A DNA stretch of 64,000 nucleotides, taken from the NCBI GenBank assembly GCA_945900015.1, contig CAMDJC010000004.1, forward strand, positions 8,679 to 72,678, read 5' to 3'. Position numbers and translations under genes: made by a program. Below are positions 1-34,355 of this stretch, piece by piece. Each line of letters begins with the position of its first letter. The first letter of the stretch is position 1. Origin of the DNA: an uncultured Odoribacter sp. (GTDB lineage Bacteria > Bacteroidota > Bacteroidia > Bacteroidales > Marinifilaceae). The notes beneath the pieces are model-generated. The model made no database searches and was not told the origin of the DNA. It worked only from the letters and a program-made list of their open reading frames with translations.

Positions 1-2063
1 GCCTTCAGTAATTCTCCATTACTTACACAATCTGCATCTCCTAAAATTAGTATCTTCTGCTCTTTGTCTCCCATCTTACGAGTCAAAGCCAAAGCGGTCG
101 GATAAGATTGTTCCACTTCTCCGGCTTCCACATTCAGCACGGCTTTGTTGTCAACAAAATCAACTGTTTCCAACTCATTCCAACTGCCTTTTTCCGGACT
201 CACCAACAAAGGAGTAACCTCAAATCCCTTATCCTCTGTATATTCCAACCCAACAGCATTCGGCATAGCTATTCCATAGCCATACAAATGCAACTGATTA
301 AACCAGTAATTAAGTTTTTTAGCCTCCTCTGTCGGAGTAGCCAATATCAAATCCGCATCATACTCCGGAGTCGGATGAACCAGGCATCCCGGCATAAAAC
401 GCACACCCATCGAGGCCACAAGCGGATTCATCACCTCCTGACGTTTTGGTTCTCCTATAATCACCAGATTGCCTCCACGTGCAACATACTCGTCAAAATG
501 CTGTTGTTCCTGCTCATTCAGTGCCTCTTTCATTTCTGCTACTACCAAAATATTGATATCTTCCGGAATTCCTTTATCCAATGTCACCTCAGTAAAATCA
601 AAACCCTGATTGATCAAGGCATAGCGAAAATTATTAGCATGCGTAAACATACTGTAAGAACGTTCTCCAACATTGTCTACAGCACGTTCTTCGTGCCCCT
701 GCAGGAATCCCACTTTTGGAAGATCCATCACCAAACGTTTCAATGCCGCTGAAATTTCAGCTTCCGTTGGGAAAATCATATTATCATCAAAAATACGCAA
801 AAAAGTCTTCTTACCATTATATTCCAATTCACGCACCACCCGGTTGTGTTCACCTGACAAATCAATCTTAGCCTTTATCTGCTCCGGGGTCAAAAACAAT
901 TTCGGATTCAGGTCATTGATTTTCATCATCTTCTTCGCCTGTTGTTCCATAGTCAGATTGCCTTCTTCATGGTATGCCGGCACACTTGGAGTATCATAAT
1001 AATACACATATTCCATCTCCATATCCGGCTTAAAACGCACATACTGTTCGAAAAGCTTCAGATCCTCATTTACACGAGCCGGCAAACCAATCCAGAAATA
1101 CTTGTCCAACAAATTGACATAGGTTGTCATCTTAAGCTTACCATCCATCTGTCCGATAATCTTCTGGCTGTTAGGGGTCAATGTATTCTGATCTGTCGTG
1201 GTCGCATCATAATAACTTCTAAAAGCCGGACGGGAAGTAACATATCCGATTAGCAACGCGATTGCCCAAATACCTAAATACTTACCCCATGTAACCGTCC
1301 ATTTGCTCTTCTGTCTTCTGGATTGCAGACGAATAATCGCCATTGCCAAGAACAGAGCTATCACCAAAAAGAAATAAATGATATTGGCACTGCAAATCAT
1401 TCCAAATAAAAACTCCTGCGAACGTCCCGGCATCGCCAACCAATAAGTCAGGTCGCGTACAAATTCAACATCCTGCCACCAGCCTTGTACATAAGTCAAT
1501 AACGATAAGACCGCCAATGTACCGACCGCAGCCACCACCTGATAAGAAGTCAAACTTGACATCAACAAGCCTATCGCCGCATAGGCACAAATCAAGAGAT
1601 AAATACCCAACAGACCGGTAAACACCTGAGAATAATCAAAATCCTTGATAATAAAAGCTCCAACGAGGACATAAAGCAAGAGAATCCCCACCAATACAAG
1701 GGCATAAACCACCATCGAAAGATATTTTCCCAAGATAATCTGCACATTTGTTACCGGAGAAGAATACAACAACTTGATAGAACCGCTTCCCAATTCACGG
1801 CTCATCAAATTCATCGTCAATAATGGAATATACAAATAAAGATATCCCTGCACAATGGTCAGCACCCCCTCCCAACCACCGAAAAATCTGGATGTTGCAT
1901 TTGTGGCTCCATATCCCATTTCTTTACTCTTCATCACACCATCGATAAGACCGGCAAAATCTATCCCTGTCTGAAAAGTGTACAAAATCAAAATCAACCA
2001 GGCAATAGGCGAAAAGAAAAGCGATTGCAATTCCGCTTTTGCAATTTTATAAATAATCTTCAT
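1..2063 (-). CDS. ABC-2 type permease fused to GldG-like periplasmic domain (runs off left edge)
   Basis: Absent from the ORF track because it has no stop in the window. Manual translation from ATG at 2063 gives MKIIYKIAKAELQSLFFSPIAW...SRELGSGSIKLLYSSP, several TM helices, then GFLQGHEER...ILGDAD, open to base 1. Confidence 0.85.
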   Translation of the reverse strand, partial: MKIIYKIAKAELQSLFFSPIAWLILILYTFQTGIDFAGLIDGVMKSKEMGYGATNATSRFFGGWEGVLTIVQGYLYLYIPLLTMNLMSRELGSGSIKLLYSSPVTNVQIILGKYLSMVVYALVLVGILLLYVLVGAFIIKDFDYSQVFTGLLGIYLLICAYAAIGLLMSSLTSYQVVAAVGTLAVLSLLTYVQGWWQDVEFVRDLTYWLAMPGRSQEFLFGMICSANIIYFFLVIALFLAMAIIRLQSRRQKSKWTVTWGKYLGIWAIALLIGYVTSRPAFRSYYDATTTDQNTLTPNSQKIIGQMDGKLKMTTYVNLLDKYFWIGLPARVNEDLKLFEQYVRFKPDMEMEYVYYYDTPSVPAYHEEGNLTMEQQAKKMMKINDLNPKLFLTPEQIKAKIDLSGEHNRVVRELEYNGKKTFLRIFDDNMIFPTEAEISAALKRLVMDLPKVGFLQGHEERAVDNVGERSYSMFTHANNFRYALINQGFDFTEVTLDKGIPEDINILVVAEMKEALNEQEQQHFDEYVARGGNLVIIGEPKRQEVMNPLVASMGVRFMPGCLVHPTPEYDADLILATPTEEAKKLNYWFNQLHLYGYGIAMPNAVGLEYTEDKGFEVTPLLVSPEKGSWNELETVDFVDNKAVLNVEAGEVEQSYPTALALTRKMGDKEQKILILGDADCVSNGELLK

Positions 2064-2086: not shown

Positions 2087-3007
2087 TTATTTCCTTGACA
2101 ACTCTGCAAAAATATCGTTCATAGAACTCTTTTCCTGTCTCAACTCAGTCAATCCCCAACTTCTGGCGGCACTGGCTTCAACAAGTCGTTCTGTCACCTC
2201 CTGAAAATCCTTATATTTAATCCGATAATCCGGTCCACCCAACTCCTCGACATCCAACACTCCCGACACTCTCTTCAAATCTTCGACAGCAGGCATGGCC
2301 ATCAACGAAACAAACAAAGAATCCGGCACAATATAATTGTCAAACTCCTCCACCGTTCCAGCAAACACCAACCGTCCTTGCTCAATCATTCGGATATGGT
2401 CGCAAACAGCCTGCACCTCTGAAAGGATATGAGTAGAAACAAGCACCGTATGCTCTTCTGCAATCTCCTTTATCAAATGGCGGACATCCAAAATCTGATT
2501 CGGATCAAGTCCATTGGTCGGCTCGTCCAACACAACGAAATCCGGATTGTGTATAATTGCCTGGGCTATGCCGACTCTCTGTTGGTATCCTCCGGAAAGA
2601 TTCCGAAGCAGACGCTTGCTGAAATGACTGATACCGCAACGTTCCAGCACTTTCTTTACAGCTTTGGAAATTTCCCGATCCGGGATATAACGCAAGCCGG
2701 CACAATATTCCAGATATTCTGTCACCGTCAAATCCATGTGCAATGGTGGATTCTGCGGCAGAAAGCCGATATGCCGTTTCGCCTCCACCGGATTTTTGCT
2801 CATGCTGATTCCTTTGATATAAACATCTCCTTCCGACTGCCGTAACACACCACACATAATGTTCATCGTTGTGGATTTCCCGGCTCCGTTGGAGCCGAGT
2901 AATCCATATATTCCATGTTTTGGAACTTCAAAATTTATGTCCCGAATAGCCCACTGCACACTATAACGATGCGAAAGGTGGTCTACTTTTACTATTGTCT
3001 CTTCCAT
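2087..3007 (-). CDS. ABC transporter ATP-binding protein (GldA/CcmA-like)
   Basis: Walker A GSNGAGKST, signature LSGGYQQR, Walker B VVLDEPT, H-loop STH. Confidence 0.92.
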   Translation of the reverse strand: MEETIVKVDHLSHRYSVQWAIRDINFEVPKHGIYGLLGSNGAGKSTTMNIMCGVLRQSEGDVYIKGISMSKNPVEAKRHIGFLPQNPPLHMDLTVTEYLEYCAGLRYIPDREISKAVKKVLERCGISHFSKRLLRNLSGGYQQRVGIAQAIIHNPDFVVLDEPTNGLDPNQILDVRHLIKEIAEEHTVLVSTHILSEVQAVCDHIRMIEQGRLVFAGTVEEFDNYIVPDSLFVSLMAMPAVEDLKRVSGVLDVEELGGPDYRIKYKDFQEVTERLVEASAARSWGLTELRQEKSSMNDIFAELSRK

Positions 3008-3052
3008 TGATAAATTCTTTTTTATAATACTTCACCCATTCAAACCCAATTA

Positions 3053-4735
3053 TCAATACCAATCATGACTACTTGTATGCCATCCAATTTGCTTGATTGA
3101 AGCAACTTTACCACCGACATTTTTCTCAAGTAACAACACAGGAGAATTGATATTCTTGATATCATAAGCCAAAATCGTTCCATCTTCACACCCCACCCAC
3201 AATTGATCCATATCAAAAAAAGCATAGGCTAGAGAAGTAATTTTAGAAGGGAAAGTCGCATTAAATTTCACAAATCTTTTGGATTGGTCCGACCAGACAG
3301 TCGAACGTTGAATAAAATACAACTCATCACCGACAGAATAAAAATCACGGTATTTTGCAGCATCTGCAATCGGTTGTGTTCTTGAATCACGACCATTACC
3401 ACTAGTTAAAATCACAGAAGAAGCATCCAATTTGACCGGCATAAGATAAAAACGTTCCATTCCGACATATTTAAACGAAGCAGTACGATTTTCAAATCCA
3501 AAATCTCCCGCTAAAGTTCCTCCATAAGCAGGGTCATTATAATACACCGTAAATAATACTGTCGTTCCTGTAAATCCGAAGCTAATGTGATTTTTTTGGC
3601 TGATATGAAGCACCTCTGTACCCTCCGGAAAGCCGTCTACCGGCACACTACGGCTATCTTTCAAAGGAATCACTCTGGTTTTATATACAGAGGTTTTATT
3701 ATATTCTTCCTCTCCCACATCCTCTCTCCATGTTGTAGCCATTACAATCCGACGATTTTTTTCATCATAACAAGGAATGATTCCGGCATAAGTAGAGTGA
3801 CCTAATTTTGTAATCTTATATCCCTTGGCATCGATGTAATATGGTTCAGTCAAATACTTACCCACTAAATAATTAGCCGATCTCATTCGGGTAAATAAAC
3901 GTCCATCTTTTGTCACAATAAATGATGCAGCTCCTTCTCCAAAATCCGGACTACCGGGAGCTTTCTCCTTCATAGCCAAAATATTAAAATCTGCTGGTGT
4001 TCCATCCAAAAACTGATCTTTTACTTCACTCACCTTCTTCATGTCCTGTACATTCACCTCATAGGCAACTTGGTCTGTCAGTATCACACAAGCACCACTT
4101 GCACTGACATCACGGGAAGTTTCCATCACTAAATCCAATGGCTGTCCCGGCACATCATGCCCGTTGATGGTTTTATAAGCATCCTCTTTCAAAATATAAT
4201 TGGTAGTAACCTTACCGTTTTCTGAAACAGAACGCGGGCTGATTACAGACACCTTAGCCTTCCCACTATTTTCCGACAAAATAAACCAATCATCCGGAGC
4301 AAACGGAGGATAAAAATAAACTAATAAACGAGCAGGAAAAGTAACCCCAGTCTTTTTCTCTATCACATTAAAAGTTCCCCATTCTCCCTTGTCATTACTA
4401 TAACGGGTCAGACCAATTTTCTTTACAATCTCATCCGTCGGCATATCAAAATCCAACTCCTCACTAATTACCACATCTCCAATTTTCCATTCATAACGCA
4501 CCTCTTCCGCACGTATCACCGAATCCGCTTCCCAAGTAAACATCTTGCTACCCCTGAACTTCATTACCTCTCCTTCTCCGGCATAACCATAGATATACTT
4601 GGGAGCACTTTCATTAAATGCCTCCACCCATAAAGGAGGATTTAACTCCTCATACGAATAGTTTCCTTCGTCCTCAAAACACCCGGTCAACAGACCAAAT
4701 AAAAATAATAGAATATATAATCTTATCGATTTCAT
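3053..4735 (-). CDS. PKD-like family lipoprotein of a SusC/D cassette
   Basis: Lipobox LLTGC-FEDEGNYSY, YEW..G N-terminal PKD-like segment, beta-rich C-terminus, position after DUF4843. Confidence 0.7.
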   Translation of the reverse strand: MKSIRLYILLFLFGLLTGCFEDEGNYSYEELNPPLWVEAFNESAPKYIYGYAGEGEVMKFRGSKMFTWEADSVIRAEEVRYEWKIGDVVISEELDFDMPTDEIVKKIGLTRYSNDKGEWGTFNVIEKKTGVTFPARLLVYFYPPFAPDDWFILSENSGKAKVSVISPRSVSENGKVTTNYILKEDAYKTINGHDVPGQPLDLVMETSRDVSASGACVILTDQVAYEVNVQDMKKVSEVKDQFLDGTPADFNILAMKEKAPGSPDFGEGAASFIVTKDGRLFTRMRSANYLVGKYLTEPYYIDAKGYKITKLGHSTYAGIIPCYDEKNRRIVMATTWREDVGEEEYNKTSVYKTRVIPLKDSRSVPVDGFPEGTEVLHISQKNHISFGFTGTTVLFTVYYNDPAYGGTLAGDFGFENRTASFKYVGMERFYLMPVKLDASSVILTSGNGRDSRTQPIADAAKYRDFYSVGDELYFIQRSTVWSDQSKRFVKFNATFPSKITSLAYAFFDMDQLWVGCEDGTILAYDIKNINSPVLLLEKNVGGKVASIKQIGWHTSSHDWY

Positions 4736-32017: not shown

Positions 32018-33052
32018 TTATTTCACTTCTCCATAATAAAACTTGGCAGCTGTTTTTCCTCCATAAGTATAGGCTGTAAATTTCATCTTCCACACCTTAC
32101 CATCCACTTTCACAACAAATACATTATCATTCAATGTGTACGTATACGGAGGCATTGTTCCTGTAGGAGTTGCAGTCACCCAACCGCCTAATTCCTTATT
32201 CAACTTCACATCCTGAAAACCGACATATCCCAATTGCATATTAGTCATATCAGCCATTACAGAACCATCCGTATCTGCAACCATTTCACTTTCTGCAGGA
32301 AGATTTGTAGTATTTACCGCATCCAAATCTGTTGTTGTCATTTTTTTGACCAAGCCGCTATTTGTCCGGATATCATATTTATGTATTGCAATATCCCAAT
32401 CCAATGCCGACTCTTCAGCTGCATCAACACCATATACATAATTATTGGCTACAGTTGCCGAATAATTTGCAGTAATATCCATTGGCATAGCACCGGGACG
32501 CAATTTACACTCCAAAGCAAGCGCTTCCCCTTTAGCTGTACCAATCGTACCATCAACAGTCAACTTGTAGATAATAGAACCACCCTTACCATCTTCAACT
32601 ATATTATCTGTTGCTGTTCCTGTCAACTTCCATACATTTCCCTCTTTGATTGCCTTAGAATGAGTTTTCACAGTAAAAGGAGTCGGTTTTCCAGAAGTCC
32701 CCGGCATAGACATCACCAAATCAGACAAAATAATCTCCACACTGTCGGCAGAAATACGATTGATAATCATTGGTTGCTCATCAATTGAAACTATCGTTGC
32801 AAACATCCCAGTCCCTTTCAAAGGCCCTTTATACAATCCGGTTACAGCACCTTCCTCTTTCTTAATTGCCAATTTCTTTACCTCACCTGTCTCAAAATTA
32901 AAATAAGACCATGCGCCATATTCATGAGCCTCTACCGTTTTTTCAGTATAAGCACCATCATATTTACCACCATCCTCCTCATCATCCGAACAAGCTGTAA
33001 ATGCCACTCCCAGCATCATCCAAGCCACTAAAAATAAATTTGTCTTTTTCAT
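32018..33052 (-). CDS. hmuY: HmuY family lipoprotein with internal insertion
   Basis: Lipobox FTAC; WSYFNFETG, DWDIAIHKYDIRTNSG, WKMKFTAY motifs; first gene of the operon. Confidence 0.85.
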   Translation of the reverse strand: MKKTNLFLVAWMMLGVAFTACSDDEEDGGKYDGAYTEKTVEAHEYGAWSYFNFETGEVKKLAIKKEEGAVTGLYKGPLKGTGMFATIVSIDEQPMIINRISADSVEIILSDLVMSMPGTSGKPTPFTVKTHSKAIKEGNVWKLTGTATDNIVEDGKGGSIIYKLTVDGTIGTAKGEALALECKLRPGAMPMDITANYSATVANNYVYGVDAAEESALDWDIAIHKYDIRTNSGLVKKMTTTDLDAVNTTNLPAESEMVADTDGSVMADMTNMQLGYVGFQDVKLNKELGGWVTATPTGTMPPYTYTLNDNVFVVKVDGKVWKMKFTAYTYGGKTAAKFYYGEVK

Positions 33053-33095: not shown

Positions 33096-33224
33096 GATGG
33101 AAGGCATGGGCTCGACAATCCCCAATAATGATGAAAGAAACATACCCCTTAATCATTTATAGGTAGCAGAACTTTTATTGCATTTTATTTTCTTCTGGAT
33201 ATTTCCAATTTTCAATTAATTGAT

Positions 33225-33232
33225 TACTTTTG
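33225..33232 (+). promoter_or_regulatory. -7 box (TACTTTTG) for the riboswitch transcript
   Basis: TAnnTTTG a few nt before riboswitch P1. Confidence 0.65.
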
Positions 33233-33236
33233 CCCA

Positions 33237-33416
33237 TGTACTGGTTTTCCTATTGTCATTCGGCAAGGGAAATAAAAGGGAATCAGGTGCAAATCCTGAA
33301 CAGGCCCCGCTGCTGTGAACCTCAATAGAGTTTCAGGGCAATACTCCTGCCACTGTCTTCATTTAACAAGACGGGAAGGCGCCCGAAACGAAGTAAGTCA
33401 GAAGACCTGCCGTACA
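33237..33416 (+). ncRNA. Cobalamin (AdoCbl) riboswitch
   Basis: AAAAGGGAATCAGGTGCAAATCCTGAACAG-CCCCGCTGCTGTGAA, GCCACTG, GGGAAGGC, and B12-box AGTCAGAAGACCTGCC; P1 TGTAC/GTACA. Confidence 0.92.
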
Positions 33417-33623
33417 AGCAAATGTCTGCACTCTCGTGGATTTAGAGGGAGACGACTGCGCATATATGTTTACTGTACTGTGAAAAACACCGGAGGTGGA
33501 ATTAATGTATACAAGGACATAATTATGTGGCCATGATTCCTATGATACATTCCTTTCATTTGAAGGATCCGCAAGTCGCATCCTGCCGGTGTTTTCTTTT
33601 TTTGTCCTTATTAAAGAAGAGAT

Positions 33624-33656
33624 AAAAAAAGTCACAGGTCGGCTAAAACCTGTGAC
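33624..33656 (-). terminator. Intrinsic terminator
   Basis: GTCACAGG-N10-CCTGTGAC followed by T7 on the minus strand. Confidence 0.8.
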
Positions 33657-33705
33657 ATTGCAACTATAAATATTAATCAATAAAACGTTCTCATTTCTGA
33701 CATTA

Positions 33706-33736
33706 CAAAGATAGGGGCTAAATACAACCTGTACAA
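33706..33736 (-). promoter_or_regulatory. sigmaA promoter TTG-20nt-TATCTTTG downstream of nadD
   Basis: -7 at 33706-13, -33 TTG at 33734-36. Confidence 0.6.
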
Positions 33737-33788
33737 TCACCTATTTTAGGTAATTGCCCTCAAAATACTCATCACATATAGGGAGAAA

Positions 33789-34355
33789 TCAGTAGTAACG
33801 TTTCACCAAACTAACAATATTAGCCGGAACATCCATTGATATATCTTCGCCCATCTTCACTTTACGGCGAATTTCTGTGGATGAAATATCTGCCAAGGGA
33901 GCATCAACCAACGTAACATTGCCTACCGGACATTCTGATAAAATTACTCCAGGACGCGGATAAACCAAAATAGGGAATTGCAATAAAATATCTTCAGCAT
34001 TACGCCATTCTCGAAAACGCAGCAAGTTGTCACCACCTATGATTAATGCAAAACTCGTATTCGGGAAATTCCCTTGCAAAACTTTCAATGTCTGATAAGT
34101 ATAAGAAGGCCGCGGCATAGAAAATTCTACATCCACGGCTTTCATGCGTATGTCATTGCCAATAGCCGCGGTCACCAGTTCCAGACGCTTCTTTTCGTCC
34201 AATAGCGAACTATCAACCTTCCACGGATTTTGAGGAGACACCACAAACCACACCTCAGTGCAATATCCGGCATCCAACAAATATTCGGCTATTTTAAAAT
34301 GACCGTTGTGCAAAGGATTAAAGGAACCGAAAAAAAGTCCGACCAGAGGATTCAT
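33789..34355 (-). CDS. nadD: Nicotinate-nucleotide adenylyltransferase
   Basis: GSFNPLHNGH, SPQNPWK, PRPSYT, ISSTEIR. Confidence 0.95.
   Translation of the reverse strand: MNPLVGLFFGSFNPLHNGHFKIAEYLLDAGYCTEVWFVVSPQNPWKVDSSLLDEKKRLELVTAAIGNDIRMKAVDVEFSMPRPSYTYQTLKVLQGNFPNTSFALIIGGDNLLRFREWRNAEDILLQFPILVYPRPGVILSECPVGNVTLVDAPLADISSTEIRRKVKMGEDISMDVPANIVSLVKRYY

Follow-up and report, generated by a model that had tools for sequence, protein, structure and literature searches.

Riboswitches that control non-coding RNAs have, to our knowledge, been shown experimentally only in a few Firmicutes. Rli55 of Listeria monocytogenes and EutX of Enterococcus faecalis (reportedly described in 2014, by Mellin and by DebRoy respectively) are said to be small RNAs gated by AdoCbl riboswitches, and AspocR of L. 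monocytogenes (reportedly Mellin, 2013) is said to be an antisense RNA to pocR under the control of a B12 riboswitch. The locus described here lies in a window of 64,000 nucleotides (the whole stretch of DNA that was analysed) from an uncultured Odoribacter sp., in which multiple alignment divides the region 33224-33714 into two modules, A on the plus strand and B on the minus strand. Like Rli55 and EutX, module A combines a cobalamin riboswitch with a promoter of its own and is not followed by an ORF; the ligand is expected to decide whether the RNA is short and terminated or long and able to sequester a regulator. Unlike these Firmicutes RNAs, it belongs to Bacteroidota, has no eut context and shows no sequence relation to them (Rfam scan of 33400-33800, E up to 10). 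The long form of Rli55 and EutX sequesters an ANTAR protein through hairpins, whereas the long form of A would sequester a small RNA by perfect antisense pairing. As in AspocR, the riboswitch is convergent with its presumed target, and read-through without B12 would give an antisense RNA. The target of AspocR is the mRNA of a regulator, while the first target facing module A is the candidate gene of a small RNA of ~75 nt; moreover, the module A unit, unlike AspocR, is conserved genus-wide while its protein neighbours change.

The ordinary btu leaders of Bacteroidales, in which RF00174 stands before btuB, btuF, BtuG and BtuH genes, have the same aptamer family as module A. Like these leaders, the module A riboswitch precedes btuF-like or DUF4465 genes in six relatives; unlike them, it is followed by nothing coding in the window and in 12 other species, and its platform is a three-way-junction terminator of ~120 nt, whereas the other eight leaders of the genome are short. 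Module B resembles RyhB, PrrF and FsrA as well as IroR of Bacteroides thetaiotaomicron in being short and in having a seed for the translation starts of ferredoxin, rubrerythrin and Fe-S enzymes. It differs from them in being confined to Odoribacter and two related genera, and no sequence relation to them was shown. IroR was described with a long bulged 5' hairpin (10.1101/2025.09.08.672848), which module B does not have. The same 2025 preprint noted that no RNA regulator of iron homeostasis had previously been reported in Bacteroidota (10.1101/2025.09.08.672848), and the sRNA atlas of Segatella copri, an organism of a different family, makes no mention of riboswitches (10.1101/2024.04.05.588293). 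No paper was found in which O. splanchnicus and a riboswitch are mentioned together.

This cobalamin riboswitch is kept nearly throughout a genus of common gut Bacteroidales and is gene-less in 13 species. The question is directly testable, as the cultured O. splanchnicus type strain appears to carry both modules; one of the compared genomes (G005) is presumably O. splanchnicus and appears to be this strain, DSM 20712. In addition, the partner module B gives a concrete and checkable prediction of an Fe-S and ferredoxin regulon. If A and B are coupled, the OFF logic of a riboswitch would be turned into ON control of a trans-acting regulator. If the riboswitch's only cargo is the antisense of a RyhB-like B, the locus would represent the first described riboswitch-to-sRNA cascade and the first iron-sparing-type sRNA circuit of this Bacteroidales family.

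The cobalamin riboswitch unit and its gene-less state

The earlier note, made from the sequence of the window, had described a complete cobalamin aptamer with its own promoter on the plus strand, pointing away from the TonB-receptor/CobN operon. An Infernal-type scan agreed with this description, as the aptamer matched the full RF00174 model (positions 1-189) at 102.3 bits (E 1.8e-24; gathering cut-off 31.5 bits) and the operon of hmuY, the TonB-dependent receptor and the CobN-like gene (Pfam HmuY, TonB_dep_Rec, CobN) is divergent from it. The genes nadD, gmk and yicC are convergent with module A. The features of the locus are collected in Table 1.

Table 1. Coordinates of the features at the A-B locus and of related sites in other contigs and genomes
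Feature	Position	Strand	Remark
hmuY-family gene	32018-33052	-	Pfam HmuY; first gene of the divergent hmuY / TonB receptor / CobN-like operon
Aptamer of module A, cobalamin class with P6 extension	33224-33428	+	Rfam RF00174
-7 promoter box of module A, TACTTTTG	33225-33232	+	Bacteroidales TAnnTTTG; overlaps the first model positions of the aptamer
B12 box AAGTCAGAAGACCTGCC	33394-33410	+	invariant
Post-aptamer hairpin, P13/kissing-loop-type	about 33418-33459	+	conserved loop CGWGGATTTAG; consensus fold, columns 4-45 of alignment A2
Near-invariant motif TTTACTGTACTGT	33469-33481	+	predicted single-stranded; identical in 16 of 19 species
Three-way-junction intrinsic terminator	33483-33603	+	consensus fold
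Terminator outer stem, AAAAACACCGG with CCGGTGTTTT	33483-33493 with 33586-33595	+	encloses two inner hairpins
Terminator inner hairpin, loop ATGTGGCC	33525-33532 (loop)	+	conserved loop
Terminator inner hairpin, AGGATCCG..CGCATCCT	33563-33584	+	
U7 run of module A	33597-33603	+	closes the terminator
Module B, candidate sRNA of ~75 nt	~33698 to 33624	-	own -7 box, seed and terminator
U7 of module B	33630-33624	-	
Module B terminator hairpin, GTCACAGG..CCTGTGAC	33656-33631	-	conserved UUAGCC loop; terminator scan
Module B seed GUUUUAUUGAUUAA	complement of 33673-33686	-	single-stranded
-7 promoter box of module B, TATCTTTG	33706-33713	-	
nadD-type gene	33789-34355	-	Pfam CTP_transf_like; convergent with module A, on the same strand as module B and upstream of it
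Seed-match site, window's genome	C5:3207-3220	-	before a 56-aa 2x[4Fe-4S] ferredoxin
Seed-match site, window's genome	C21:3636-3649	-	before a reverse rubrerythrin
queG of the window's genome	G000:C25:28236-29114		
Tandem riboswitches of G005	locus L065, G005:C1:2449500-2454500; aptamers 2867-3069 and 2440-2641	-	

The TAnnTTTG box of module A is invariant in all 19 orthologous loci, and transcription is predicted from the sequence to start at ~33239-33241. The aptamer had been judged undecayed, and this was upheld: the orthologous copies that were rescanned scored 98.8-104 bits, and 16 of the 54 predicted pairs keep their pairing through double (compensatory) changes when only the 13 gene-less species are considered. 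The sequence comparison points to clear purifying selection on module A. A block of ~33 nt that spans the promoter region (33201-33234) is 88-94% identical to stretches of unrelated loci in six further Odoribacter genomes, and may be a shared promoter or operator module.

The structured element behind the aptamer had been taken for a separate cargo. It is instead the platform of the riboswitch's own, genus-specific terminator, and the U7 run that had been pointed out closes its long stem. Its consensus fold has compensatory changes in 10 of 31 pairs. A covariance model of the platform (R2, built from alignment A4) found it in 19 of 20 Odoribacter species, with one copy per genome except for two in G005, and it was absent from 77 genomes of 22 other genera of the same family. 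The second copy in G005 belongs to a paralogue of module A, the first of two tandem cobalamin riboswitches before a Meth_synt_2 gene (metE-like, of the cobalamin-independent methionine-synthase family), which indicates that this type of platform serves as an ordinary cis terminator. Hairpins with similar loops of the TTCGAGG or TTCGGGG type to that of the post-aptamer hairpin follow several other cobalamin aptamers of the genome. The motif TTTACTGTACTGT is unique in the genome. A scan of 33400-33800 against known RNA families gave only chance-level hits (Rfam, E up to 10), and the identification of the platform or of module B as BTnc231 was rejected (17 bits against a cut-off of 80).

The module A riboswitch is present in 19 of the 20 Odoribacter species, and 13 of the 19 orthologous loci, the window included, have no plus-strand gene after it (L001-L004, L006-L009, L011-L013, L015 and L018). 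In agreement with the earlier statement that no protein gene precedes the convergent nadD operon, comparison of the orthologous loci revealed no conserved ORF between the aptamer and nadD. Promoter, cobalamin aptamer, terminator and the lack of an ORF are thus found together in module A. In the other six loci the riboswitch does stand in the 5' leader of a B12-related gene. In four of them (L005, L010, L014 and L017) a btuF-like (Peripla_BP_2) or DUF4465 gene follows A beyond module B, with no consensus plus-strand promoter between B and the gene, and in the remaining two (L016 and L019) module B is missing and a DUF4465 or BtuF-like gene is placed directly 3' of the A terminator. The DUF4465 genes downstream of A are of the BtuH type. 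The earlier note had proposed to check whether orthologous loci also lack a gene and keep the downstream element, and would have been contradicted by a CDS in close relatives together with an unconserved downstream sequence. Only half of this combination is seen: six relatives have btuF-like or DUF4465 genes, but the downstream sequence is strongly conserved, and 13 loci are gene-less. Each of the eight further cobalamin riboswitches in the window's genome is followed by an ORF 36-124 nt past the aptamer (including nrdD, a corrin-synthesis fusion, TonB receptors, DUF5074 lipoproteins and a BtuF-like protein), and module A alone has none.

A DNA search against 40 relatives showed that 33224-33714 is kept in full at 72-76% identity in Odoribacter species with a NadD identity of only 51-61%, and at 87-92% in the two closest species. 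The flanks vary between species on both sides, with a TPR gene, hmuY, a ThrE-like gene and others on the left, and queH, nadD, btuF, DUF4465 and a gene of 323 aa on the right. A maximum-likelihood tree of the element branches like a star (11 of its 17 inner branches lack support) and favours neither a gene-less state nor a btu leader as the ancestral one.

Module A is made as a discrete RNA. In several public runs it was covered by assembled RNA contigs as a transcript of ~270-400 nt; these contigs are strandless and do not resolve B12-dependent isoforms. In four bovine metatranscriptomes of one study, error-free contigs with a depth of 8.6-16.7 covered 33254-33531, 33262-33532, 33266-33533 and 33254-33518 of the window, nadD had a depth of 4.7-10, and hmuY had no coverage. 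One bovine run gave a further, weaker contig at 33538-33834. For the corresponding locus of G005 (L004; the A-B locus of this genome is at C1:3060764-3061280), four runs of different studies gave contigs at 1524-1918, 1582-1855, 1636-1875 and 1589-1816, while neither flanking gene had any coverage. With the U-run ending at 1864 and the module B hairpin at 1902-1926, three of the runs have contigs that stop close to the terminator, and one contig, strandless like the rest, passes the U-run into the B hairpin. Most A molecules do not extend beyond the terminator, and at least part of the transcription runs over the spacer into the B hairpin. A control locus with ordinary riboswitch leaders was seen in only two of the four L004 runs. 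Module B as a separate RNA was not seen among the assembled contigs. Taken together, the suggestion of the earlier note that this locus gives a B12-controlled non-coding transcript is a fair reading, as the unit is gene-less, selected and seen as a discrete RNA.

The candidate small RNA of module B

The terminator at 33631-33656 had been assigned to nadD. It belongs to a convergent small unit at ~33624-33713 on the minus strand, in which, read from 33713 to 33624, TATCTTTG is followed by a variable 5' end, the conserved ACGTTTTATTGATTAATATTTATAGTTGC, the terminator hairpin and seven T. The fold of module B shows an open seed and a terminator (z = -3.1). Of the 17 B loci, 16 keep the -7 box, which is also present at the B-like loci of two other genera. 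A covariance model (R1) found one copy of module B, always adjoining A, in 17 of 20 Odoribacter genomes, and B accompanies A in 17 of the 19 species having A. The genome G009 has an extra, solitary copy without a riboswitch, and weaker solitary copies that bear a promoter, with no riboswitch nearby, were found by R1 in the two other genera; none was found in ~397 sampled genomes from other families of the order. From these occurrences, B is taken to be an independent small transcription unit and not the terminator of nadD.

Upstream of the -7 box of B, at ~33731-33749 on the minus strand, there is a conserved block with the genus consensus AATACCTA-N6-GGGATT (TTACCTAAAATAGGTGATT in the window). 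This imperfect inverted repeat is conserved to the same extent as the -7 box, also in the two other genera, and could be a binding site of a regulator.

The complement of the B seed, TTAATCAATAAAAC, has two further sites in the window's genome, and both are located just before start codons (Table 1). Across the genus, perfect matches of 14-16 nt to the seed-complementary motif UUAAUCAAUAAAAC stand 1-10 nt upstream of AUG. In the 20 Odoribacter genomes there are 46 sites with the 14-mer but only one with its reversed control; outside the genus it is near the background (24 against 16 in 77 genomes). We read 18 non-B sites in other species, and 16 of them precede genes of iron or Fe-S proteins: 11 lie in the 5' UTR of the orthologous ferredoxin gene, 8-10 nt before the AUG, three precede rubrerythrins, one a class-I (Fe-S) fumarate hydratase and one an enzyme of the HpaB/AbfD family. 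The other two sites have no ORF. A genome-wide ranking of targets for B with RNAduplex was noisy, and a clear signal was given only by the exact-motif approach.

The motif is always sense in the genes that it precedes and antisense in module B, and the C21 site overlaps the stop codon of the upstream gene and not a promoter; this arrangement fits RNA-RNA pairing at translation starts, as in iron-sparing sRNAs such as RyhB. On the basis of these motifs, the candidate sRNA B most likely blocks the translation of Fe-S and iron proteins. Less probably, the seed-matching motif could act as a DNA operator instead. In G018, which has no module B, the ferredoxin motif is still kept. The matches of the B seed to the 5' UTRs of Fe-S and iron genes also lend unexpected, indirect support to the link between corrinoid and heme/iron status that had been proposed for the locus in the earlier note. 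In the L016 locus, from which module B is missing, the DUF4465 leader carries at ~1900-1915 (plus strand) the sequence ACGTTTTATTAAC, which is like the B seed but in the sense orientation.

Possible coupling of the two modules and competing explanations

Module A is best explained as a B12-sensing transcription unit whose regulated output is RNA and not protein. As for the way in which this output acts, our tentative preference is that B12 sets termination against read-through of A, and that the read-through RNA, being antisense to B, lowers B; we regard this as plausible rather than probable. With B12 bound, transcription of A would stop at the U7 run and give an RNA of ~365 nt, and in the absence of B12 the RNA polymerase would read through the A terminator. 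It would then meet module B head-on 20-100 nt later, with the terminator of B coming first and its body and promoter after that. The long A isoform would be a perfect antisense of B, and its synthesis would also interfere with the B promoter; by both routes, B would fall when B12 is low. The seed of B would pair upstream of the AUG in the mRNAs of ferredoxin, rubrerythrin, class-I fumarase and an AbfD-like enzyme, and the circuit would in this way couple the corrinoid supply to ferredoxin and the Fe-S proteome. In four relatives, the same read-through would go past B into the btuF-like or DUF4465 genes of B12 uptake.

Several observations on the arrangement of the locus bear on this coupling. 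Module A is convergent with both B and nadD, and the A-B geometry is found in 17 of 19 loci. All 13 gene-less copies of A face B, and both copies of A without B directly precede genes; where B12-uptake genes are present together with B, they sit beyond it, and B stays beside A. The possibility that the short A acts as a sponge of B was rejected, since in 16 of 17 species its pairing with the B seed is no more stable by RNAduplex than that of shuffled A, and the predicted sites are unconserved. Since B-binding sites in the terminated A do not exceed chance, only the read-through A can pair with B. Against coupling, B exists without the riboswitch (the second copy of G009 and the two other genera); B does not need A, and the adjacency of A and B could be inherited synteny. 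About 11 local rearrangements have occurred at the locus, two of which separated A from B, and the statistic for A-B adjacency was not significant because independent rearrangements are too few. Furthermore, a pure read-through model leaves the invariant single-stranded motif and the conserved loops of the platform unexplained. That the only cargo of the riboswitch is the antisense of a RyhB-like sRNA B, with low B12 freeing ferredoxin, rubrerythrin and Fe-S enzymes, seems rather unlikely to us. The physiological logic from B12 to Fe-S is conjecture; a possible reason for corrinoid-Fe-S coupling lies in the dependence of B12-independent back-up enzymes, such as NrdD/NrdG, on ferredoxin and Fe-S clusters.

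The invariant motif and conserved loops of the platform would be accounted for if the terminated RNA of ~365 nt, or a processed form of ~290 nt, were itself the product, a stable B12-bound RNA with a protein or other RNAs as its trans targets, reached through the invariant UUUACUGUACUGU and the loops AUGUGGCC and GGAUCCG/CGCAUCC, with B as a mere neighbour. The invariance of the unpaired parts exceeds the needs of a terminator, the discrete RNA is at least as abundant as the nadD mRNA, and the four bovine contigs end within 33518-33533, three of them at 33531-33533 in the AUGUGGCC loop. These ends could nevertheless be assembly breaks. No complement of TTTACTGTACTGT exists elsewhere in the genome at up to one mismatch, and a trans target for the motif was rejected on this ground. 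The platform is also used in plain cis contexts (L016, L019 and the tandem copy of G005), which implies that the conserved sequence may simply be switch machinery. We regard a trans-acting or protein-binding role of the short A as doubtful. Less probable again is an action of the A read-through, by antisense RNA or polymerase collision, on the convergent nadD-gmk or queH-nadD-gmk operon, in the manner of AspocR on pocR. The convergent geometry is seen in all gene-less species, and queH lies at the A-B locus in 10 of the 10 species that have it, but the neighbours change (nadD, queH, btuF, DUF4465, the 323-aa gene) while A and B stay, and the terminator of B comes first in the path of read-through. 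The sign would also be wrong, as low B12 would lower QueH, a B12-independent enzyme that is the counterpart of the B12-dependent QueG. In the window's genome queH is missing, queG is present instead, and A and B are kept all the same; queH was rejected as the real target for this reason.

In the gene-less species, module A could also be a relic, the orphaned and functionless leader of a lost btuF/DUF4465 operon, as B12-uptake genes lie downstream of A in six relatives and the star-like tree favours neither ancestral state. On the other hand, 13 deeply diverged species keep the promoter box, aptamer, platform and terminator, the stems show compensatory changes, the element surpasses the adjacent coding genes in conservation, and module A is transcribed. 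The retention of promoter box, aptamer and terminator across this divergence makes a relic improbable, and it leads us to reject the recent deletion of a btu-type gene that had been offered as the alternative; the downstream sequence is strongly conserved, and an old loss with retention of the element could be accommodated. A micropeptide encoded in or after the terminator platform, the other form of output that had been considered, is hardly credible. An ATG is present in the conserved ATGTGGCC of many species, and the window has a frame of 24-30 codons running through the terminator. However, the ATG is missing in four species, the frame from it stops after three codons in the window and is 11-28 codons long or runs on elsewhere, and the indels of the platform are not multiples of three. 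The micropeptide was rejected because the post-aptamer ORFs differ between species in frame, length (3 to >30 codons) and presence.

Some minor features of the locus were also observed. The bovine contigs end at 33518, 33531, 33532 and 33533, the last three falling on the last base of the conserved AUGUGGCC loop; either processing of the RNA or a break in the assembly may account for this. The epoxyqueuosine reductase genes queH and queG are mutually exclusive in the 20 Odoribacter genomes, with 10 genomes having each, and queH always adjoins the riboswitch/sRNA pair, lying between nadD and B or beside B in 10 species other than that of the window. The HmuY-family protein encoded on the left of module A has 344 aa, and its Pfam domain of 157 positions is spread over residues 45-338, which implies a large insertion in this protein.
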